This document shows positions 16,476-44,582 of a stretch of 44,582 nucleotides of DNA, piece after piece. The DNA lies in the NCBI GenBank assembly GCA_000434175.1, contig HF999802.1:26618-71199 (forward strand), given 5' to 3'. The notes below the pieces were generated by a model. That model saw only the letters and a list, made by a program, of their open reading frames with translations, made no database searches and was not told the DNA's origin. Every line of letters starts with the position of its first letter. Positions within the stretch are counted from its first letter, which is position 1. Position numbers and translations under genes: made by a program. This stretch comes from Mycoplasma sp. CAG:611. GTDB taxonomy: Bacteria; Bacillota_I; Bacilli_A; RF39; UBA660.

Positions 16476-18392
16476 GTGGTAGTTATTAAAGTAATAAAAA
16501 GAGATGGCTCATCAGTTGAATATGATAGAGAAAAAATAAAAATAGCCATAAGCAAAGCTAATAATGAGGTAAATGATGAAGAAAAAATATCACTTGCACA
16601 GATAAATAATATTATAAAATATATTGAAAGTTTAAACAAAAAAAGAATTTTAGTTGAAGATATTCAAGATATTATAGAAATAAGACTTATGAGTGCAGGA
16701 AAATATGAACTAGCTAAAAAATATATTACATATCGATATACAAGAGCGCTTATTAGAAAAGCAAATACAACAGATGAATCAATACTTAGTTTGCTTAAAA
16801 ATAATAATTCATTTGGTATAAAAAATAATAATGCATCTTATCAAAGAGATTTAATAGCAAGGGAAGTATCAAAAGATTTAACAGAAAGAATTTTATTGCC
16901 AGAAAAAATAGTTAAAGCACATGAAAAAGGTTTAATATACTTTCATGATATGGATTATTTTATTCAACCTATAATTAATTCAAGTTATATCAATCTTAAA
17001 GATATGTTAGAAAATGGAACATACATAAATGGTGTTAAAATAGAAAAGCCTAAGTCATTTCAAGTGGCATGTAATGTTACAATGCAAATTATTAATGCTA
17101 TATCAAACGGGCAAATAAATGGATTTTCTATTGATATAGATTGTTTAAGTCCTTATTTAAATGCAACATATTTAAAAAATGTTAATATGTTAAAAGAAAA
17201 ATATAAGACTAAAGCAAATGATATTTTGATAAAGACATTAGCTAATGATTTAACAAAAAAAGAATTAGAAAATGGAGTTCAAACCATTCATTATCAGATT
17301 AATACTCTTATTAACAGTAGTGGTGTTGTACCTTTGGTTACTTTGTTTTTAAGAATAAATAAAGATGATTTATTTAAACAAGAAACAGCCCTTATTATTG
17401 AAGAAATATTAAAACAAAGATTAAATGGTATAAATAAAGAAAGTGGTAAAGAAGAATATATATATCCTAAAATAGTATATGTTTTAGATGAAACTAATAA
17501 TTTAACTGGAGGATGTTATGATTATTTAACGAAAATTGTCGTAAATTGTATTTTAAATAATGGTAATGTTAATCTTCTTAGTTCAAAGAAAATGAAAGAG
17601 ATGTTTAATGGTAATGTTTTCTCTCCAATCGGAGAAAATCAATTTTTACCTATTTATAAAACATCCTCTAAATATAAGTTTGTTGGTAGATTTAATCAAG
17701 GAATAGTAAGTCTTAATTTACCAAGAGTAGCACTTTCTTTAAAAGAAAATGAGGACTTTTTTGAAAAATTAGATGAAGTTCTTGAAATATGTAAAGAATC
17801 ACTTTTATGTAAGTATTATTCACTTCTTGGTACAAATGAAGCAATATCAAGTATTCATTTTAGATATGGAGGTATAAGTAGACTAAATAAAAATGAAAAA
17901 ATAGATGAATTATTAAAAAATGGTTATTCAACACTTTTACTTAGTTATGTAGGGCTTCCTGAAGTAGTATATCTTCTTTTGAAAAAAAATATTAAGGAAG
18001 AAGAAGGAGAAAGCTTAGCAATTAAAATATTAAATAGGATAAATGAAGTTTTAAATAATTTATCAAATGAAATAGGAGTTAGTTTTAAATTATATTCATT
18101 TTATGATAATGTTTCTTCTAAATATTTTATAAATAAAGATTTAGAAGAGTTTGGTTATATTAAAAAAATAACTGATAAATCAAGTTATAATAGTGCTTAT
18201 TTTATTGAAGATGAAAAGCTTAATAAAATAGAAAAATTAGAATATGAAAAGAAATTTAATAATTTATCTTTGGGTGGAACAATTAATAGAGTTGATATAA
18301 GTGATTTAAAAATGGATGAATTAGAAGATTTAATAAAATATATTTATGAAAATGTTATATATTGCAATTTAAAAAATATGAAAAGGAGATAG
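16476..18392 (+). CDS. Degenerate NrdD paralog: ATP-cone plus class III RNR barrel, lacking active-site Cys, Zn ribbon and glycyl-radical domain
   Basis: It aligns with the downstream NrdD (VIKRDG ATP-cone, FHDMDYF, IEKPKSF). However HNCELINL becomes INSSYINL and CMGCRSFL becomes PIGENQFL. The protein ends before the CxxC...RTCGY segment. Confidence 0.75.
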   Translation: MVVIKVIKRDGSSVEYDREKIKIAISKANNEVNDEEKISLAQINNIIKYIESLNKKRILVEDIQDIIEIRLMSAGKYELAKKYITYRYTRALIRKANTTDESILSLLKNNNSFGIKNNNASYQRDLIAREVSKDLTERILLPEKIVKAHEKGLIYFHDMDYFIQPIINSSYINLKDMLENGTYINGVKIEKPKSFQVACNVTMQIINAISNGQINGFSIDIDCLSPYLNATYLKNVNMLKEKYKTKANDILIKTLANDLTKKELENGVQTIHYQINTLINSSGVVPLVTLFLRINKDDLFKQETALIIEEILKQRLNGINKESGKEEYIYPKIVYVLDETNNLTGGCYDYLTKIVVNCILNNGNVNLLSSKKMKEMFNGNVFSPIGENQFLPIYKTSSKYKFVGRFNQGIVSLNLPRVALSLKENEDFFEKLDEVLEICKESLLCKYYSLLGTNEAISSIHFRYGGISRLNKNEKIDELLKNGYSTLLLSYVGLPEVVYLLLKKNIKEEEGESLAIKILNRINEVLNNLSNEIGVSFKLYSFYDNVSSKYFINKDLEEFGYIKKITDKSSYNSAYFIEDEKLNKIEKLEYEKKFNNLSLGGTINRVDISDLKMDELEDLIKYIYENVIYCNLKNMKRR

Positions 18393-18398
18393 AAAAAT

Positions 18399-20564
18399 AT
18401 GCAAGTAATTAAAAGAGATGGAAGAAGACAAAAATTTGATAAGGAGAAGATATATAATGCTGTTAGTAAAGCATTTATTGAAGTTGATAAAGAATTAACG
18501 GAACAAGATAAGAAAAAGGCTTTAGAAATAGCAGATTATATTGAAAGTTTAAACAAAAATTTGAAGGTGGAAGAAGTTCAGGATATCGTTGAAGATAAAC
18601 TTATGGCAAGTAATAGGAAAGATGTTGCTAGATGTTATATAAGATATAGATATTTAAGAGGACTTGTAAGAGAAAGTAATACAACAGATAAAACAATATT
18701 TGAGCTTTTAAATGGTACAAATGAGTATTGGAATAGTGAAAATGCTAATAAAAATGCTAAAGTTGTTACCGTTCAAAGAGATTACATAGCAGGTATTACA
18801 AGTACTGATATAACAAGAAGATTTTTACTTCCTAAAGATATTGTGGAAGCACATGATGCTGGGATAATTCATTTTCATGATGCAGATTATTTCGCACAAA
18901 ATGCTTTACATAATTGTGAACTTATAAATCTTGAAGATATGTTACAAAATGGTACAATGATTAATAATATCTTAATTGAAAAGCCACATAGATTTTTAAC
19001 TGCAGCAACTATTGCAACTCAAATAATAACAGCGGTAACAAGTTCAAGTTATGGTGGTGCTACGATTACTTTAACAGCACTTGCACCATTTGTTAGATCT
19101 AGTTATAACAAATATTATGATAAGTATAAAAAAAGAGGCATGGATGATGAAACATGCAAAAAATATGCCATGGAAGATACAAAAAAAGAAATTGAAGATG
19201 GGGTTCAGACATTTAATTATCAGGTAAATTCAATGACTAATACAAACGGACAATCTCCTTTCTTATCAGTATGTATGTATCTTGGAGAAACAGAAGAATA
19301 CAAAGAGGAATTAGCTCTTATAATCGAGGAATTTTTAAAACAAAGAATATTAGGACTTAAGAATGAAAAAGGTGTTTACATAACACAAGCTTTTCCTAAA
19401 CTTTTATATGTTCTTGAAGAAGACAATATAAAAGAAGATAGTAAATATTATTATTTAACTGAGCTTGCTGCTAAATGTACTGCTAAAAGATTAGTTCCTG
19501 ATTATATTTCTGAAAAAATCATGAAAGAATGTAAAATAGATGCAAATGGTAATGGACAATGTTATCCATGTATGGGTTGTCGAAGCTTTTTAACACCATA
19601 TTTAGATAAAAATGGAAAACCTAAATATTATGGAAGATTTAATCAAGGCGTTGTTACTATTTCATTACCAGATGTTGCTTTATCTAGTAAAAAAGACATG
19701 GAAGAATTCTGGAAAATATTTGAAGAAAGATTAGAATTGTGTCATAGAGCACTTCAAATAAGACACGAACGCCTTGCCCATGCCATAAGTGATATTGCTC
19801 CAATTTTATGGCAACATGGGGCCCTTGCAAGACTTGAAAAAGGAGAAAGTATTCATGAACTTTTACATAATGGTTATTCAACTATATCACTTGGATATGC
19901 AGGACTTTATGAATGTGTTAAATATATGACAGGGAATTCTCATACTGATAATGGTGTAGGTAAAGAATTTGCTTTAGAAGTTATGAAAAAACTTAATGAT
20001 AAATGTGCTGAATGGAAAAAAGCAGAAAAAATAGATTATAGTGTTTATGGAACTCCAATTGAATCAACAACCTATAAATTTGCTAAATGTTTAAGAAATA
20101 GATTTGGTATAATCGAAGGAATAACTGATAGAGATTATATAACTAATTCATATCATGTTCCAGTATTTGAAAAAATAGACCCATTTACTAAATTAGCATT
20201 AGAAAGTGAATTTCAAAAACTATCTCCAGGTGGTGCGATAAGTTATATTGAATGTGCTGATTTAACAAATAATGTTGATGCTGTAATTGAAGTTATTAAA
20301 TTTATTTATGATCATATTATGTATGCAGAACTTAATACTAAATCAGACTATTGTCAAGTTTGTGGCTATGATGGTGAAATAAAAATCGTTGATGAAGATG
20401 GCAAACTTGATTGGAAATGTCCTAACTGTGGTAATATGGACCATTCTAAAATGAATGTTGCAAGAAGAACATGTGGTTATATTGGTACAAACTTCTTTAA
20501 TCAAGGAAGAACTGATGAAATTAGAAATAGATATGTTCATTTAGATAATCATAAAATAGACTAG
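18399..20564 (+). CDS. nrdD: Anaerobic ribonucleoside-triphosphate reductase (class III)
   Basis: ATP-cone, GCRSFL active-site loop, Zn ribbon CQVCG...CPNCG and glycyl-radical motif RRTCGYIG. Confidence 0.92.
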   Translation: MQVIKRDGRRQKFDKEKIYNAVSKAFIEVDKELTEQDKKKALEIADYIESLNKNLKVEEVQDIVEDKLMASNRKDVARCYIRYRYLRGLVRESNTTDKTIFELLNGTNEYWNSENANKNAKVVTVQRDYIAGITSTDITRRFLLPKDIVEAHDAGIIHFHDADYFAQNALHNCELINLEDMLQNGTMINNILIEKPHRFLTAATIATQIITAVTSSSYGGATITLTALAPFVRSSYNKYYDKYKKRGMDDETCKKYAMEDTKKEIEDGVQTFNYQVNSMTNTNGQSPFLSVCMYLGETEEYKEELALIIEEFLKQRILGLKNEKGVYITQAFPKLLYVLEEDNIKEDSKYYYLTELAAKCTAKRLVPDYISEKIMKECKIDANGNGQCYPCMGCRSFLTPYLDKNGKPKYYGRFNQGVVTISLPDVALSSKKDMEEFWKIFEERLELCHRALQIRHERLAHAISDIAPILWQHGALARLEKGESIHELLHNGYSTISLGYAGLYECVKYMTGNSHTDNGVGKEFALEVMKKLNDKCAEWKKAEKIDYSVYGTPIESTTYKFAKCLRNRFGIIEGITDRDYITNSYHVPVFEKIDPFTKLALESEFQKLSPGGAISYIECADLTNNVDAVIEVIKFIYDHIMYAELNTKSDYCQVCGYDGEIKIVDEDGKLDWKCPNCGNMDHSKMNVARRTCGYIGTNFFNQGRTDEIRNRYVHLDNHKID

Positions 20565-21085: not shown

Positions 21086-21523
21086 ATGTTAGTAAATATA
21101 AAAAAATTAAATGAAAATGCTAAACTTCCTACTTATGGCACAGTTTATTCTGCTGGATGTGATTTATATGCTTGCATGGATGAAGATGTTAGTATAAATC
21201 CAGGAGAAACTAAATTAATCAAAACAGGATTAAGTATGGAAATACCAGAAAATTATGCAGGACTTATTTATGCAAGAAGTGGGTTAGCAACAAAAAAAGG
21301 CCTTGCTCCTGCTAATAAAGTTGGAGTAATAGATAGTGATTATAGAGGCGAAATAATGGTAGCTTTACATAATCATAGTAATGAAGTTCAAACAATTGAT
21401 AAAAATGAAAGAATAGCACAATTAGTAGTAACACCATTTTTAAAAGTAGAATTTAATGAAGTAGAAGATTTAAATGATACAGTACGTGGTGCTGGTGGTT
21501 TTGGTTCAACTGGTACAAAATAA
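21086..21523 (+). CDS. dut: dUTP diphosphatase
   Basis: dUTPase motifs SAGCDLYA, ARSGLA, GVIDSDYRGEI and RGAGGFGSTG. Confidence 0.9.
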   Translation: MLVNIKKLNENAKLPTYGTVYSAGCDLYACMDEDVSINPGETKLIKTGLSMEIPENYAGLIYARSGLATKKGLAPANKVGVIDSDYRGEIMVALHNHSNEVQTIDKNERIAQLVVTPFLKVEFNEVEDLNDTVRGAGGFGSTGTK

Positions 21524-21547
21524 ACAAGCAAATGCTTGTTTTTATTT
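21523..21547 (+). terminator. Rho-independent terminator after dut
   Basis: Hairpin aacaagca/tgcttgtt followed by TTTATTT. Confidence 0.65.
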
Positions 21548-21654
21548 GGCAAAAATTACCAACAATAAATGACATAAATTTATGATAAAATAAATCTTGT
21601 AAGATAGAAAAATATACCAAATTTGACGCCTGTTGAAAAGTGTAAAGAAAAATA

Positions 21655-21725
21655 TTGACATGGGGGGGGTATATTATATAATAACCTTATAAAGTTAATA
21701 GTTAATAAAATAAAAGGAAGTTTGA
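21655..21725 (+). promoter_or_regulatory. Poly-G promoter/leader cassette, copy 1 (G8, 16-nt spacer)
   Basis: TTGACA (21655-60), t, G8 (21662-69), then TATAAT (21677-82), followed by the conserved leader ccttataaagttaatagttaataaaataa. Confidence 0.7.
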
Positions 21726-21729
21726 TAAT

Positions 21730-21887
21730 ATGATAGAAAAACTAAAACAAAATAAATTAATATTAATAATATTTATGATATCTATAATTCTTATAATAAA
21801 GTAAGACCAACTTTATATTTAAAATCAAATATTAAAATAACTGGAGGCTCAGGAACAAGTACTAATCCATATACACTTGGAATTTAG
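21730..21887 (+). pseudogene. Internally deleted remnant of a paralog of the 22751-23782 surface protein
   Basis: A 24-aa signal-anchor ORF (MIEKLKQNKLILIIFMISIILIIK, stop at 21802). An out-of-frame tail at 21804-21887 encodes RPTLYLKSNIKITGGSGTSTNPYTLGI, matching the C-terminus RPVLYLKSAVKITGGSGTSTNPYTLGL. Confidence 0.7.
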
Positions 21888-21998: not shown

Positions 21999-22577
21999 AT
22001 GATAGAACAATTAGAACAAAAAACAGTAATTAAAAGTAATAAAAAAGAAAATAAGAAAAACTTAAATTTAAGTAAAAGAATTGATAATGTATTAAAAAAT
22101 ATTAACGAAAGAAACCCTGTAAAATTAAGAAATTATACACCACAAATATTAGTTGAAAATGGTGTTAAAGATCTTCCAATGTATGAAAACCCATCTCATA
22201 TAAGAAAAAACATTTTAACTAAAAAAGAGACACAAAAATTAGGCTTAGCAACAAGTATAAGAAATCATTATCATGGTTTAGGTAAGGAACTTTATATAAA
22301 AATAATTAATAGTTTGGACAGCCCGAGAGTTATATTTAAAAATAAAAACAATAAGGATTATTTGATATTAACGACAGTTAAAGATGATAATAATAGTAAC
22401 ATAATAGTTCTCATTGAAATAGAAACAATTACAAAAATAAATATCTTTAATATTGACATTAATAGAATAAAGACTGTATATGGTTATGATAGGAAAGATC
22501 CTGATTTAAATAAATATATTAAAAATAATATTAAATTAGGAAGGTTTACAAAAATTTATGAACAAAAAAGAACTTAA
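21999..22577 (+). CDS. Stand-alone MuF-C-terminal/PBECR-like domain protein (MGE-associated)
   Basis: The pattern LPMYENPSHIRKNIL...HYHGLGKELYIKIINSLDSPRVIF...YLILTTVKDDNNSNIIVLIEI...INRIKTVYGYD matches my recollection of that domain. No search was run. Confidence 0.35.
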   Translation: MIEQLEQKTVIKSNKKENKKNLNLSKRIDNVLKNINERNPVKLRNYTPQILVENGVKDLPMYENPSHIRKNILTKKETQKLGLATSIRNHYHGLGKELYIKIINSLDSPRVIFKNKNNKDYLILTTVKDDNNSNIIVLIEIETITKINIFNIDINRIKTVYGYDRKDPDLNKYIKNNIKLGRFTKIYEQKRT

Positions 22578-22678
22578 GTACGGGTATAAACAACCGCAGT
22601 TAAGTTCTTTTGTATCAATAATATACCATAAAATTATTTTGTTGTAAACACAATTGCTAAAAAATGTTAATAAAATTA

Positions 22679-22750
22679 TTGACATGGGGGGGGGTGTATT
22701 ATATAATAACCTTATAAAGTTAATAGTTAATAAAATAAGGCTGTGATATA
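22679..22750 (+). promoter_or_regulatory. Poly-G promoter/leader cassette, copy 2 (G9, 17-nt spacer)
   Basis: TTGACA (22679-84), t, G9 (22686-94), then TATAAT (22702-07). The same leader runs to aaggctgtgatata before the GTG at 22751. Confidence 0.75.
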
Positions 22751-23782
22751 GTGAAAAAAATAATAAGTTTTTTAAAAACAGATATAAAAATAATAAATAG
22801 TTATTTTCTATTTGCAATTATTTTAATAATACTAATAAGTATAGGATATTCAAGTTATGCATTATTTAGTTTTACAAAAACAAGTACTAATGTAATTGAA
22901 GCTACTGTAGGAGAATTAAAAAAAAGCGGAGCAGATACCCTTATAAAATTAACAGATAATACAAATGATAGTGGACTATATACAATAACACATCCAAAAG
23001 ATACAACACTTCAAATAGGAAATGATAAAGATATAACAGAATATAGATATCGTGGAGCAAGTCCAAAAAACTATGTAACATTTAATAACGAAACATGGAG
23101 AATACTTGGGGTATTCCCCACAGATGATGGAACAGGAAATATTGAAAATAGAATAAGGATAATAAGAAATGAAAGTATAGGGAATAAATATTGGGATACA
23201 AGTGATTCAAATAATTGGGCTAGACCATCAACATTAAATACAGAACTTAATACAACATATTTAAATAGTTTAACAAGTGAAGCACAAAATATGATAGGAA
23301 ATACAAAATATTATTTAGGAGGAAAAAATGTAACCTATAATAATGGATATGCAGATACACCATTACAATTTTATTCATATGAAAGAAAGATACAAAATAC
23401 AACAAGTAATGAGTTTTACAATGGAACAAATCCAAATAGTTGGGTTGGAAAACTAGGACTAATGTATGTAAGTGATTATGGATATGCAAGTAGTAATTGT
23501 GAAAATAAAAGAATATATGATTATAACTCATCAGCAAATGATATAAGAGCATGTAATGATACGAACTGGTTATACAATATAAAGGATAATGAGTGGATAT
23601 TGCCTCAGAATGCCGGCACTAGTAACCGTGCGTTTTATGTCAATTCAAACGGGCACGTGAACTACAACTTCGTTGTCTACAACGGTCAGTTTGCCGTTCG
23701 GCCAGTCCTATATCTAAAATCCGCAGTAAAAATAACTGGAGGATCAGGAACAAGTACTAATCCATATACACTTGGTTTATAA
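22751..23782 (+). CDS. Signal-anchored secreted/surface protein with a C-terminal ...AVRPVLYLK-type domain
   Basis: N-terminal TM ending SYALFSF. The C-terminal part (YVSDYGYASS, EWILPQN, FAVRPVLYLKS) resembles the WLRS/VRPA-type domain common in Firmicutes surface proteins. Confidence 0.6.
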   Translation: MKKIISFLKTDIKIINSYFLFAIILIILISIGYSSYALFSFTKTSTNVIEATVGELKKSGADTLIKLTDNTNDSGLYTITHPKDTTLQIGNDKDITEYRYRGASPKNYVTFNNETWRILGVFPTDDGTGNIENRIRIIRNESIGNKYWDTSDSNNWARPSTLNTELNTTYLNSLTSEAQNMIGNTKYYLGGKNVTYNNGYADTPLQFYSYERKIQNTTSNEFYNGTNPNSWVGKLGLMYVSDYGYASSNCENKRIYDYNSSANDIRACNDTNWLYNIKDNEWILPQNAGTSNRAFYVNSNGHVNYNFVVYNGQFAVRPVLYLKSAVKITGGSGTSTNPYTLGL

Positions 23783-33497: not shown

Positions 33498-33510
33498 CTA
33501 TCTGCTTTTA
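33487..33510. terminator. Shared bidirectional hairpin at the abutting ends of ddl and the sigma gene
   Basis: aaaagcagata-ac-tatctgctttt is palindromic. The stop codons of the two convergent genes are adjacent (33497/33498). Confidence 0.45.
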
Positions 33511-34343
33511 TTAATGTTTTTTTCTAATCTTTCATAATCATATTTCAATTTATAAAGAGCATTATTTAGTATTTTACTAATTCTTTGTTTTGTAAGATTG
33601 TATTTTTCTCCAATTTCTTTTAAAGTTAAATTATCTTTAAAATATAATTTAATAATATCTAATTCCTTTTCATTTAATAAAGATAATTTACTTTTAACTA
33701 TTTCATATTCTAATTTTTTAATAACTTGTTCACAAGGGTCTATCGCATCTTCATAAGTTATATAATCTATATAATCTTCTTCTATATCATCACTTATTCT
33801 TATATTTAAAGATAATATATTTAAAAGAAAAAGTTTATAATTTTTAACGGTACTAATACTAATATTTAATATATTAGCAAGTTCTTGGTCGTTTAAATTA
33901 GGGTTGGTATTAATAATACTTTTTAATTTATTTATTCTTTGCATTGTATGAATATTTATATTAAATCCTTTACTATTTTCTAAAACATATTTAGTAAGTT
34001 GCTGTTTAATAATTATTCCGGCATAACTTGAAAATTTAACATCTTTTTCTGGATTAAAAGATTTAACAGCATTTATTAAGGCTAAATTTCCTTCATTTAT
34101 TAAATCAAATATATTAATAACAGAAGTTGTACTTCCAATAAAAGTTTTTGCAATAGTAACAGATAGCCCTAAATTGTGATTAATTAGTTTTTTAAAAGCA
34201 TTTTTATCTCCTTTTTGATATTTATTAAAAAGGTTTATTTGTTCTTCTTTTTTTAATACTTCAAATTGTTTTATATAATTTAAATAATCTTGTAACTCTT
34301 TATTATTTATATATTCGTAATTCCATTTTGTTATTTCTTTCAT
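33498..34343 (-). CDS. Sigma-70 family sigma factor with regions 2, 3 and 4
   Basis: NLGLSVTIAKTF, EGNLALINAVKSFNPEKDVKFSSYAGIIIKQQL and the region 4 HTH LTLKEIGEKYNLTKQRISKILNNAL. Confidence 0.75.
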   Translation of the reverse strand: MKEITKWNYEYINNKELQDYLNYIKQFEVLKKEEQINLFNKYQKGDKNAFKKLINHNLGLSVTIAKTFIGSTTSVINIFDLINEGNLALINAVKSFNPEKDVKFSSYAGIIIKQQLTKYVLENSKGFNINIHTMQRINKLKSIINTNPNLNDQELANILNISISTVKNYKLFLLNILSLNIRISDDIEEDYIDYITYEDAIDPCEQVIKKLEYEIVKSKLSLLNEKELDIIKLYFKDNLTLKEIGEKYNLTKQRISKILNNALYKLKYDYERLEKNINKSR

Positions 34344-34439: not shown

Positions 34440-35057
34440 TTAAAACTTTCGATATAATCCAACAACTTTACCTAATATTGTAACATTTTTTAAAATAATT
34501 GGTTCCATTGTGTCATTTTCAGGTTGTAGTCTAAAATGATCTTTTTCTTTATAAAATGTTTTTACAGTTACCTCATTATCATCATTCATTGCCACTACAA
34601 TATCACCATTTTTAGCATCATTTTTTCTTTCTACAATTATTATATCGTTATCATAGATACCTACATTAATCATACTTTCGCCACTTACCCTTAAAGTAAA
34701 GATATCTTTTTTATTAGCAACAAGATTAACTGGTAAATCAAAATATTCATCTGGCATTTCAATCGCATCAATTGGATTACCTGCAGTTACTTTTCCAAGT
34801 AGGGGAACAGATACAACAGTTTCATCCTTTTTTGCATATTCATTAGGCACTAAAAGTTCAATAGTTCTGTTTTTTTCAGGATCTTTAGTAATAAAACCTT
34901 TTTGAACTAAAGTATTTAAATGTGTTTGTACTGTAGCAGTACTATTTAAATTTGTTGCTTTACATAATTCTCTAACAGTAGGGGGGTAACCTTTTTTAGC
35001 CATGTATTTTTTAAGTTCTTTTAATACGTTTTCTTGTTTATTAGTTAATTTTTCCAT
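34440..35057 (-). CDS. lexA: LexA repressor
   Basis: An N-terminal wHTH (GYPPTVRELC), a cleavage-site region (VTAGNP), and S24 peptidase motifs LRVSGESMINVGI and VTVKTF. Confidence 0.92.
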   Translation of the reverse strand: MEKLTNKQENVLKELKKYMAKKGYPPTVRELCKATNLNSTATVQTHLNTLVQKGFITKDPEKNRTIELLVPNEYAKKDETVVSVPLLGKVTAGNPIDAIEMPDEYFDLPVNLVANKKDIFTLRVSGESMINVGIYDNDIIIVERKNDAKNGDIVVAMNDDNEVTVKTFYKEKDHFRLQPENDTMEPIILKNVTILGKVVGLYRKF

Positions 35058-39061: not shown

Positions 39062-39109
39062 TGTATATTTATTTTTTTATGAAAAAATTGTTAAAAATTC
39101 TAAAAAATA

Positions 39110-39185
39110 TTGACAACCTGGGGGGGGTGCTTTATATAATTAATTTATAAAGTTAATAGTTAATAAAATAAGGTTGTGATGTATA
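39110..39185 (+). promoter_or_regulatory. Poly-G promoter/leader cassette, copy 3 (G8, 19-nt spacer)
   Basis: TTGACA (39110-15), acct, G8 (39120-27), then TATAAT (39135-40). The leader taatttataaagttaatagttaataaaataaggttgtgat is conserved. Confidence 0.65.
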
Positions 39186-39191
39186 TATTTT

Positions 39192-40652
39192 ATGATAGTT
39201 TTCTTAAAGGATTTATTTGAAAATAAAATAGATATTAAAAAATTTATAATTTATTTATTGTTTATATTTTTAATTCTTTTTCCTTTTAATGTTAAATCAT
39301 ATTCGTATATAATATTAATTTGCTTTTTATTAGTATTATTATTATATAACAAAAAGCATAATATAAAATTAGTTATGGGGTATATTCTATTTGTTTTTAT
39401 AACCATATTTGTTATTGAAAACTTTCATGAAGAAAATGTTAGTAAAATATTATATAACGATATATTTAATCCTCAAATAGAAGAAAAGATAAATAAAATA
39501 TTAGCAAGTGATAAATCATATTACAGAATGAATAATTTAAATTATCCAACAAAAATAGTTAATAAAATATATAGTTCTAATTATTTTACAACAAATATTT
39601 ATTCGTCAACTTATAATAATTATTATTTGAATTTTGTACGTAATGTTTTTGGTGGAAGTGTGGCTGATTATAATTACTTTCTAGTATCTGGGAATAATAA
39701 TTTACTTTTTAATTCATACATGGGAGTAAAATATTTATATTCTAAAATGGAACTAAAACAAGGATATATTAAATTTGATGATAATATATATTTAAATGAA
39801 AATTATTATCCTTTGATTTATGCAAATAGTAATATTGTAAGCCAAAATGATTTTGAAAAATATAAGTATCCTTATTCAAATGAGTTGTTAATGAAAAATG
39901 TCGTTTCAAATAAAAATAGTAATAATAATATTAATAAATTTGATATTAAAAAGATTAATTTAGATTATACTTTAACATATAATGATGGCGTAAAAATTAA
40001 GAAGCTTGATGAAGGATATTTGCTTACAGTAGAAGATACTGGAAAACTAGAATTAAATTTAAATCAAAAGTTAATAAATAAAATATTATTTATAATTCTT
40101 GAAGGCCTTGAAAAAAATAGTTGCAGTTATGATAATATAAATATGACTATTAATGATGTTTCAAACATTTTAACATGTAAAACATGGCCATATGATAATA
40201 AAAATAATACTTTTAAATTTGTTATAAGTGAAGATAATTTGGATAAGTTAACAATTAATTTAACAAAAGGAACATATAAGATAACCAATATTTCAACATT
40301 TGTTTTAGATTACGAAGATTTTAAAAATTGGAAAGAAGATATAAAACCATTTAATATAACTTCATTTAATAGTTCTTTAATAAAAGGAAATATAACCATA
40401 GATAATCCATCTTATTTAGTAACTAGCATTCCTTATGATAAAGGATTTAAAGTTGTTGTAAATAATAAAGAAGTATCTTATGAAAATATAAATAATGGAT
40501 TTTTAGGAATATATTTAGAAAAAGGTAATTATGATGTTGAAATAACTTATAAAAGTCCTTGGCTAAATATAGGAAAATTATTAAGTTTTATAGGGATAAT
40601 TAGTTTTATAACAATTGTTTTAATAGAAAGAAAAAATAAAATAAAAAAATAA
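39192..40652 (+). CDS. YfhO-family-like membrane protein, C-terminal half only
   Basis: About three TM helices are followed by a large extracytoplasmic domain. The end is YfhO-like: NNGFLGIYLEKGNYDVEITYKSPWLNIGKLLSFIGIISFITIVLI. The multi-TM N-terminal half of canonical YfhO is absent. Confidence 0.4.
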   Translation: MIVFLKDLFENKIDIKKFIIYLLFIFLILFPFNVKSYSYIILICFLLVLLLYNKKHNIKLVMGYILFVFITIFVIENFHEENVSKILYNDIFNPQIEEKINKILASDKSYYRMNNLNYPTKIVNKIYSSNYFTTNIYSSTYNNYYLNFVRNVFGGSVADYNYFLVSGNNNLLFNSYMGVKYLYSKMELKQGYIKFDDNIYLNENYYPLIYANSNIVSQNDFEKYKYPYSNELLMKNVVSNKNSNNNINKFDIKKINLDYTLTYNDGVKIKKLDEGYLLTVEDTGKLELNLNQKLINKILFIILEGLEKNSCSYDNINMTINDVSNILTCKTWPYDNKNNTFKFVISEDNLDKLTINLTKGTYKITNISTFVLDYEDFKNWKEDIKPFNITSFNSSLIKGNITIDNPSYLVTSIPYDKGFKVVVNNKEVSYENINNGFLGIYLEKGNYDVEITYKSPWLNIGKLLSFIGIISFITIVLIERKNKIKK

Positions 40653-44378: not shown

Positions 44379-44582
44379 ATGAAAAATGTTAATAAAAAAG
44401 AATTGTTTATAAAATTAATACCTTTATTTATAACTTTATTAAGTTGTATTATATTAGTAAGTTATGCTTATTATAAAATAAAATTAGAAGGACAAAAAAC
44501 ACATTTTGTATCAACAGATGTAATATCATTTACATATAAAGAAAGTGAAGATAAAATATCTATAACTAATATGGAACCAAAA
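44379..44582 (+). CDS. Signal-anchored secreted protein, SYA-motif family (3' end outside the window)
   Basis: MKNVNKKELFIKLIPLFITLLSCIILVSYAYYKIKLEGQKTHFVSTDVISFTYKESEDKISITN. An AAAGGAG RBS is present. This is similar to the N-terminus of the 40669-41367 protein. Confidence 0.55.
   Translation, partial: MKNVNKKELFIKLIPLFITLLSCIILVSYAYYKIKLEGQKTHFVSTDVISFTYKESEDKISITNMEPK

Follow-up and report, generated by a model that had tools for sequence, protein, structure and literature searches.

Do runs of eight or nine G, placed between the -35 and -10 hexamers of three near-identical promoter/leader cassettes in DNA with a G+C content of about 24%, work as slippage-prone switches of surface genes? 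The question is raised by a stretch of 44,582 nucleotides from Mycoplasma sp. CAG:611, referred to here as the window. A first-pass annotation of this stretch had described the three cassettes and proposed that slipped-strand phase variation of the G tracts switches surface or envelope genes on and off, or grades their expression.

All three modules were found at the positions given by that annotation, all on the (+) strand, and its tract lengths of 8, 9 and 8 as well as its spacers of 16, 17 and 19 nt were borne out on the window sequence. Each module is about 100 bases in size. Two architectures can be told apart, namely type A (TTGACA-T-G8-7 nt-TATAAT with a 16-nt spacer; sites 1 and 2) and type B (TTGACA-ACCT-G8-7 nt-TATAAT with a 19-nt spacer; site 3). 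The parts of the cassettes, together with a hairpin in front of the first one, are as follows.

21522-21541, (+) strand: terminator-like hairpin, 3' of the dUTPase gene and just 5' of cassette 1.
21630-21729, (+) strand: cassette 1, type A; upstream motif CTGTTGAAAA (G at 21632), -35 TTGACA at 21655-21660, G8 at 21662-21669, -10 TATAAT at 21677-21682 (spacer 16 nt), leader 27-mer at 21687-21713, RBS-like AAGGAAGTTTGAT.
22654-22750, (+) strand: cassette 2, type A; upstream motif TTGCTAAAAA (G at 22656), -35 TTGACA at 22679-22684, G9 at 22686-22694, -10 TATAAT at 22702-22707 (spacer 17 nt), leader 27-mer at 22712-22738, RBS-like AAGGCTGTGAT.
39088-39178, (+) strand: cassette 3, type B; upstream motif TTGTTAAAAA (G at 39090), -35 TTGACA at 39110-39115 followed by ACCT, G8 at 39120-39127, -10 TATAAT at 39135-39140 (spacer 19 nt), leader 27-mer at 39145-39171, RBS-like AAGGTTGTG.

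Set off by the hairpin, cassette 1 is predicted to be a transcription unit of its own. A chance origin of the G runs, already judged improbable in the annotation, is hard to reconcile with the scans: the pattern gave seven overlapping matches against 0.14 expected, none of 100 shuffles equalled seven, and the three cassettes hold the only G runs of at least 7 in the window, in which a G6 run stands at 34981-34986. The leader 27-mer TTATAAAGTTAATAGTTAATAAAATAA occurs exactly three times in the window with 0 mismatches, where 0 occurrences are expected. Sites 1 and 2 scored 12/12 in the promoter consensus scan, which covered spacers of 16-18 nt and so left site 3 with its 19 nt outside its range.

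The core of the module is as annotated, but the module itself is longer, beginning about 30 nt 5' of the tract at the motif TTG(T/C)T(A/G)AAAA. At each of the three sites, the tract begins exactly 30 nt after the G of this motif (21632 to 21662, 22656 to 22686 and 39090 to 39120), and this distance stays constant while TTGACA is shifted by 3 nt between type A and type B. This indicates that the motif, the tract and the -10 form a fixed frame in which the -35 hexamer slides by 3 nt. At the other end, the leader tail had been given as ...AAGG(c/t)TGTGAT, which is correct for sites 2 and 3 but not for site 1, reading ...AAAAGGAAGTTTGAT.

To see what the cassettes could drive, the sequences behind them have to be listed.

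21730-21804, (+) strand: stub ORF of 24 codons (MIEKLKQNKLILIIFMISIILIIK, then stop), the 5' end of an 864-aa-type family gene.
21800-21887, (+) strand: out-of-frame 3' tail (ending ...RPTLYLKSNIKITGGSGTSTNPYTLGI, then stop) from a 342-aa family paralogue.
21999-22577, (+) strand: MuF_C-domain gene of 192 aa, matching the phage MuF C-terminal domain.
22751-23782, (+) strand: intact family gene of 343 aa with a GTG start, signal anchor ...IGYSSYALFS and C-terminal ...GGSGTSTNPYTLGL.
39179-40652, (+) strand: 5'-truncated yfhO, with a C-terminal 486-aa ORF from 39192, bluntly fused to the RBS of cassette 3.
44380-44582, (+) strand: start of a family-type gene (MKNVNKKELFIKLIPLF...SYAYYKIKLEGQKT); the sequence 5' of it is ordinarily AT-rich and lacks a poly-G cassette.

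The expectation that envelope genes stand behind the cassettes is thus met in the window by site 2, which alone precedes an intact family gene, but not by sites 1 and 3, which carry rearrangement scars. At site 1, the first 70 nt of the stub match the 864-aa-type gene present at this locus in ten other strains, and from 21800 on the sequence is that of the last ~28 codons, out of frame, of a 342-aa paralogue lying 5' of the MuF_C gene (L037; numbers with L denote related loci). In all related strains inspected, the MuF_C gene is flanked on both sides by family genes that a cassette drives. At site 3, the orthologous cassette in L050, L058, L069 and L123 precedes a family gene, complete copies of which have 444-594 aa, and the full 828-aa yfhO of other strains is located elsewhere, behind GT2 and GtrA genes. 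Both junctions (21799/21800 and 39178/39179) are essentially blunt and private to the window, and the regions flanking them lie ~820 kb apart in one 985-kb MAG contig. They may stem from true rearrangement or from a chimeric assembly. UMGS1485 has a third orphan cassette (L012, (-) strand, 1633), where the leader enters sequence without a substantial ORF. The locus at 44380 is occupied by variable genes of 483-613 aa in ten other strains.

Exact-protein look-ups of the 343-aa ORF, including a version with M for V, and of the yfhO fragment returned no match, and related loci were reached via the exact-protein matches of neighbouring genes. A metagenome scan with a 25-nt leader core gave 81 loci. 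From the scan and the neighbour-gene loci together, 105 cassettes (99 of them parseable) were collected from gut-metagenome contigs; they fall into ~20 flank-defined loci, precede at least five unrelated N-terminal classes and number ~10-20 per genome, the orthologue of cassette 1 being found in 24 other contigs. The promoter/leader is therefore as portable as the first-pass annotation had called it, and the search for further copies and their downstream genes, which was also its suggestion, has brought more than 100 of them from related gut-metagenome contigs.

Conservation was examined in an alignment of 68 distinct cassette copies. The conserved span starts at the TTG(T/C)T(A/G)AAAA motif, takes in an A-rich stretch, both promoter hexamers with the G tract between them, and the leader, and ends at the SD-like AAGGNTGTGAT, which on comparison by eye is identical at 9 of 11 positions to AAGGAGGTGAT, the complement of the 16S 3' end. 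The arrangement TTGACA-(T or ACCT)-G8/9-7 nt-TATAAT is kept in 91 of the 99 parseable copies elsewhere as well as at all three window sites, so that the homopolymer sits between the -35 and -10 of a predicted sigma-70-type promoter. Other assignments were tried and rejected. Aligned by eye, the consensus of sigma-54 (-24/-12) and that of the sporulation factor sigma-F (-10 GGnnAnAHTR) each fit some cassette variants only, and no other -35/-10 register of type B yields 16-18 nt without poor hexamers. The 19 nt of type B would suit a MerR-type activated promoter, but ACCTGGGGGGGGTGYTTTA has no apparent inverted repeat by eye.

Across ~917 kb of related DNA, 100% of the G runs of at least 7 lie within cassettes; the G8-G10 run is the sole long G/C homopolymer class in these genomes. 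The copies sit singly among housekeeping genes (dUTPase/ABC transporter, MgsA/FtsK, PBP/DnaG, GyrB/GatC, UPF0154). When species-representative genomes were scanned with a leader 20-mer, the matches were mostly chance AT-rich ones and real cassettes were seen in the UMGS1485 genome only. Viral contigs gave 0 cassette matches, indicating that the cassette is not phage-borne. A variant cassette with a different leader and a new N-terminus (MKKQNIIMGISF...SYAAYKFSA) was noticed in L078 ((+) strand, ~13167). The contigs L053, L066, L087, L042 and L140 start or stop inside the G tract or a few bases away from it, which could reflect length heterogeneity within the sample, difficult sequencing of poly-G or the repeat nature of the cassette.

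The genes behind the cassettes encode a large protein family. Their products begin with a few N-terminal classes, MKKIISFLKTDIKIINSYF...IGYSSYALFS, MIEKLKQNKLILIIF...TGVTYSLYEI, MNFFKRFQKLKVKEQTDKKR... and a few others, and the downstream ORFs range from 130 to 894 aa, many family copies being truncated. The bodies are modular and include an ALK/LTK glycine-rich domain (ALK_LTK, 1.5e-42), a dockerin (8.6e-8) and a shared C-terminal module with a weak FGE-sulfatase-like signature, and one unrelated Cys-rich cassette-driven protein has a VPNTG-type sorting tail. The same locus and N-terminus can carry different gene bodies across strains (343 vs 714 aa at site 2; 632-890 aa at site 1). The secreted or surface nature of the products, as annotated, agrees with their N-terminal signal anchors, the dockerin, the ALK/LTK domain and the VPNTG-type tail. 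For the family as a whole, it is well supported by sequence that we are dealing with dispersed, modular, highly length-variable proteins predicted to be secreted or surface-exposed.

The 343-aa protein of the window has 3386 homologues at E <=1e-5, none with an informative name; family homologues carry the labels 'Mycoplasma sp. CAG:611' or 'Bacilli bacterium'. For this protein, and for the family members of L001 and L002, there was no match in NCBIfam, nor in Pfam above noise. Its AlphaFold2 model, built from a 30-sequence alignment, had a mean pLDDT of 45, too low for a fold search. By eye, a canonical L-x-[GAS]-C lipobox is absent from the window proteins, the N-termini of which read ...LIILISIGYSSYALFS and ...IITGVTYSLYEI. 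We take the segments ...GYSSYALFS, ...VTYSLYEI and ...SYAAYKFSA after the membrane anchor to resemble SipW-type (TasA-like) signal peptides; the NCBIfam scan of the family N-termini (e.g., window 22751-22900) returned no match for this resemblance.

The window is chromosomal, encoding nrdD/nrdG, dUTPase, FtsK, Ddl, a PBP5 domain, LexA, SirA, DnaD and HU, and exact matches to its proteins occur in human-gut metagenome contigs and MAGs. The index lists 941 assembly blocks for the exact dUTPase protein and 3157 for the exact HU protein, indicating that the organism is widespread. Since spoIVA lies nearby and cell-wall genes are present, the host is not a true mollicute; it is an uncultured low-GC (~24%), wall-bearing and apparently spore-forming human-gut member of the Bacillota ('Tenericutes UMGS1485'/'Mycoplasma sp. 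CAG:611'). Some other genes of the window deserve mention. A 281-aa RpoD/RpoS-like protein of the sigma-70 family, scoring below every NCBIfam cut-off, is encoded at 33498-34343 on the (-) strand next to lexA (34440-35057), and may represent a sigma factor of an unusual, group-2-like kind. Grouped at 9-2904 are genes for a large serine recombinase (Resolvase, Recombinase, Zn-ribbon), for an HTH protein and for a 176-aa SigK/SigE-like sigma factor; this edge of the window probably carries a mobile or skin-like element. At 16476-20564 there are two tandem NrdD paralogues, the first without a Gly_radical domain match, and their order is kept in 10 of 10 related strains.

If the tract is a switch, its length should differ between strains, and invariance across isolates had been named in the first-pass annotation as the result that would speak against it. 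Here, the two architectures part: type A (sites 1 and 2) varies, but type B (site 3) had 0 indels in 37 observations from at least eight loci. Among copies of the site-2 locus that agree in all 45 nt of their upstream flank, three carried G8, five (the window included) G9 and one G10. The site-1 locus had G8 in 17 copies and G9 in four; G9 was found on at least three allele backgrounds (MNFFKRF, LVLIIF and LVLIMF) and G8 on at least MNFFKRF and LVLIMF. As G9 thus arises on several backgrounds at site 1, and L002 (G8) and L045 (G9) share an identical flank there, we infer that the events are recurrent. Occasional G9 copies appeared at each of four further type-A loci, and the type-A range between near-identical strains is G7-G10.

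A non-modal length was seen in 17 of 70 type-A copies, and in 8 of 37 among loci of at least 8 kb. Both states occur in long contigs (L002, 53 kb, G8; L045, 152 kb, G9; L037, 60 kb, G9), and some length variants are in short, possibly low-coverage contigs (L040-L042). As a control, 23 A/T runs of 7-8 nt were scored, giving a non-modal length in 1 of 205 observations. In the MKKIIS class, an A7 run spans codons 2-3; it did not vary in any of the 43 copies having it, and a frameshift switch at this position was rejected for that reason.

Meanwhile, G8 is the modal length in both architectures (72 of 99 copies, 73%). The difference between type A and the first 28 type-B copies gave p = 0.0024 in a Fisher test, in which the sequences compared are related to one another. 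The bases flanking the type-B tract are diverse, and its run can be 7, 9 or 10 G through substitution. Substitutions that keep the length are tolerated (G7A, GGGAGGG, and T-to-G giving G9 or G10), indicating that spacing is conserved at least as much as the identity of the Gs. The strict keeping of the 19-nt spacer points to a functional geometry rather than to a drifting 'off' state, and the invariance of type B fits a geometry kept by selection, not a tract that switches freely. The proposal of phase variation is therefore partly supported, in that the type-A tract is polymorphic next to stable A/T controls, and weakened in that G8 prevails in 73% of copies and type B has no indels.

The conserved leader had been proposed as a second regulatory layer. 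No RNA structure was detected: the folding energies of the leader (z-scores +0.43 and -0.01) could not be told apart from those of shuffles, and an Rfam search of the whole window at the gathering threshold gave 0 matches. As a consequence, this second layer is pure conjecture. The tandem GTTAATA is reduced to a single copy in one locus (L142-L144, ~1443-1500), and leaders differ after TATAAAGTTAA in other cassette copies. The inverted repeat AACCTTAT/ATAAGGTT, which appeared when the folded segment began further upstream, was rejected as it is missing in type B and at site 1. The leader could serve as an operator or a translation enhancer, or it could simply be inherited sequence.

These results can be combined into a mechanism to which we give slightly better than even credence. 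The module would be the common sigma-A-type promoter, 5'UTR and RBS of the family, and its slippage-prone poly-G spacer would act as a rheostat at each locus. Expression would be started by the A-rich upstream region with the TTGYTRAAAA motif, the consensus -35 and -10, the short unstructured A/U-rich 5'UTR and the SD-like sequence. Slipped-strand mispairing during replication would presumably add or remove one G, and in type A such one-G steps would set the -35/-10 spacing at 15, 16, 17 or 18 nt. The strength of the promoter could thus shift heritably, reversibly and independently in each of the ~10-20 copies of a genome, while selection would keep type B at its single length of 19 nt. Given the perfect hexamers, promoters with 16-18 nt between them are all predicted to be active, so that the effect would be graded at most and maybe small. 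From the on/off or graded switching originally put forward, the graded form is what the promoter geometry predicts; a clean on/off switch is not.

In another explanation, the length differences are errors of sequencing or assembly at a difficult homopolymer, and the tract is stable in vivo. G8 and G10 on the exact site-2 flank do come from stretches of 1.3-3.5 kb (L040, L041, L042, L124), and several contigs stop in or beside the tract. However, G8 and G9 are both present in long contigs (53, 60 and 152 kb), the rate of type-A variants is unchanged for loci of at least 8 kb, and the 37 type-B copies, with tracts of equal length, are free of such 'errors', which makes this explanation very improbable. 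It is also unlikely, although less so, that the conserved 5' block is mainly a substrate for homology or rearrangement, that variation arises through swapping, truncation and deletion of gene bodies, and that the G run is irrelevant. The differing bodies behind the same N-terminus at sites 1 and 2, the numerous truncated family copies and the three orphan cassettes, whose junctions lie 0-70 nt from the start codon, agree with this. Nevertheless, the junctions are blunt, private and at differing positions, so that a site-specific crossover point is not evident, and those of the window could be assembly artefacts; the cassettes have no recombinase gene beside them, the single one that the window encodes (9-1280) being 20 kb off, and the conserved, uninterrupted G run is left unexplained.

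A more serious competitor, which we regard as possible though clearly the less probable choice, takes the G run as a fixed cis-element. Through recognition or DNA shape it would serve an activator or sigma factor together with TTGYTRAAAA, the cassettes would define a regulon of co-regulated surface-protein genes, and the length polymorphism would be mutational noise of little consequence. The modal G8 of type A and type B alike, the absence of type-B indels and the 30 nt kept between motif and tract at the three window sites in spite of the 3-nt shift of TTGACA all fit such an element; the constant distance besides a sliding -35 hints at a role of the tract itself, through its position or its sequence. 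A 19-nt spacer makes a poor stand-alone sigma-70 promoter, and type B may therefore need a helper; among the genes of the window is the one for the unusual 281-aa sigma factor of RpoD/RpoS-like type. Against a fixed element, substitutions that break or extend the run at unchanged length are tolerated, type-A length variants are frequent and recurrent, no regulator was identified, and the spacer has no apparent dyad symmetry, which argues against a MerR-type operator. The slippage rheostat and the fixed element are compatible with each other. Together they would make a two-layer unit, in which a dedicated factor, perhaps the atypical 281-aa RpoD-like sigma of the window or an activator, reads the upstream motif and the G block as a regulon of ~10-20 genes, slippage tunes or silences single members, and the 16- and 19-nt registers would be functionally distinct classes. 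We consider this combination rather unlikely.

The cassette draws its interest from the prevalence of the organism, from the great size of a family that carries no annotation, and from a hypothesis that lends itself to direct testing on metagenomic reads that already exist. If the cassette tunes its genes, it offers a simple marker of surface variation, readable from sequence and directly scorable in existing metagenomes, it explains the assembly breaks at these loci, and it flags the family as the host- or phage-facing surface of the organism. If the tract is fixed, the cassette still marks a compact regulon and a portable strong promoter in a lineage without genetic tools. If the two-layer reading is true, combinatorial surface variation would come from one promoter module in a prevalent uncultured lineage of gut Bacillota. 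Known phase variation in human-gut commensals is dominated by invertible promoters in Bacteroides, and repeat-slippage switches are known mostly from pathogens such as Neisseria, Treponema, Campylobacter and mycoplasmas. In the searchable literature we found no description of the cassette or the family and no mention of UMGS1485; papers on CAG-611 seem unrelated by title and abstract.

Several known systems can be set beside the cassette. The switch of the pilus clusters in Bifidobacterium breve UCC2003 is reportedly an intragenic frameshift. Surface structure in that strain varies through replication slippage of G tracts in the pilus clusters (PMC9187656). Both cases concern G tracts at the surface genes of a human-gut commensal, the tract of the cassette being placed in a promoter spacer instead. 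In Treponema pallidum, tpr subfamily II and tprL have poly-G tracts of ~7-12, of which those of up to 8 are permissive, and the length varies within isolates (PMC7864442). They share with the cassette a paralogous surface-protein family with poly-G at each promoter; unlike here, the tpr tract is at or overlapping the -10, just 5' of the transcription start, and not in the -35/-10 spacer. This location rules out a spacing mechanism for tprL (PMC7864442). A warning comes from Mycoplasma agalactiae vpma, in which a T-tract beside the -10 has experimentally no role and Xer1 inversion drives switching (PMC2268961), indicating that the position of a tract alone is no proof of function.

In Mycoplasma hyorhinis vlp, and also in M. 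arthritidis maa2 and M. mycoides vmm, indels in a spacer repeat toggle transcription (PMC2268961, citing Citti & Wise 1995). The cassette resembles vlp in belonging to a variable multigene family of surface proteins, each with a conserved promoter/5' block (leader, signal region) and a spacer homopolymer. It departs from vlp, maa2 and vmm in being poly-G rather than poly-A or TA. The clustering of vlp, vsp and vsa in one locus is not shared by its genes, which stand one by one among housekeeping genes, and their signal-anchored products generally lack a canonical lipobox and are not lipoproteins; its host, unlike those of vlp, has peptidoglycan and sporulation genes.

Among the closest counterparts are T. 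pallidum tp0126 and Neisseria meningitidis porA, in which poly-G lies between the -35 and -10 with an optimum at 17 nt, and one-G steps lead from graded to absent expression (PMC7864442). As there, the poly-G of the cassette is in the spacer of a sigma-70-type promoter, here a predicted one, of a surface-protein gene. Unlike these promoters, the cassette has perfect consensus hexamers, with which the 16-18 nt states are likely all active, and one of its classes stands at 19 nt and never varies. It is moreover a multi-copy element (~10-20 per genome) of a Gram-positive-type gut commensal. By its predicted anatomy, by its variation between strains (type A only) and by the class of its genes, the cassette would belong with porA, tp0126 and vlp.
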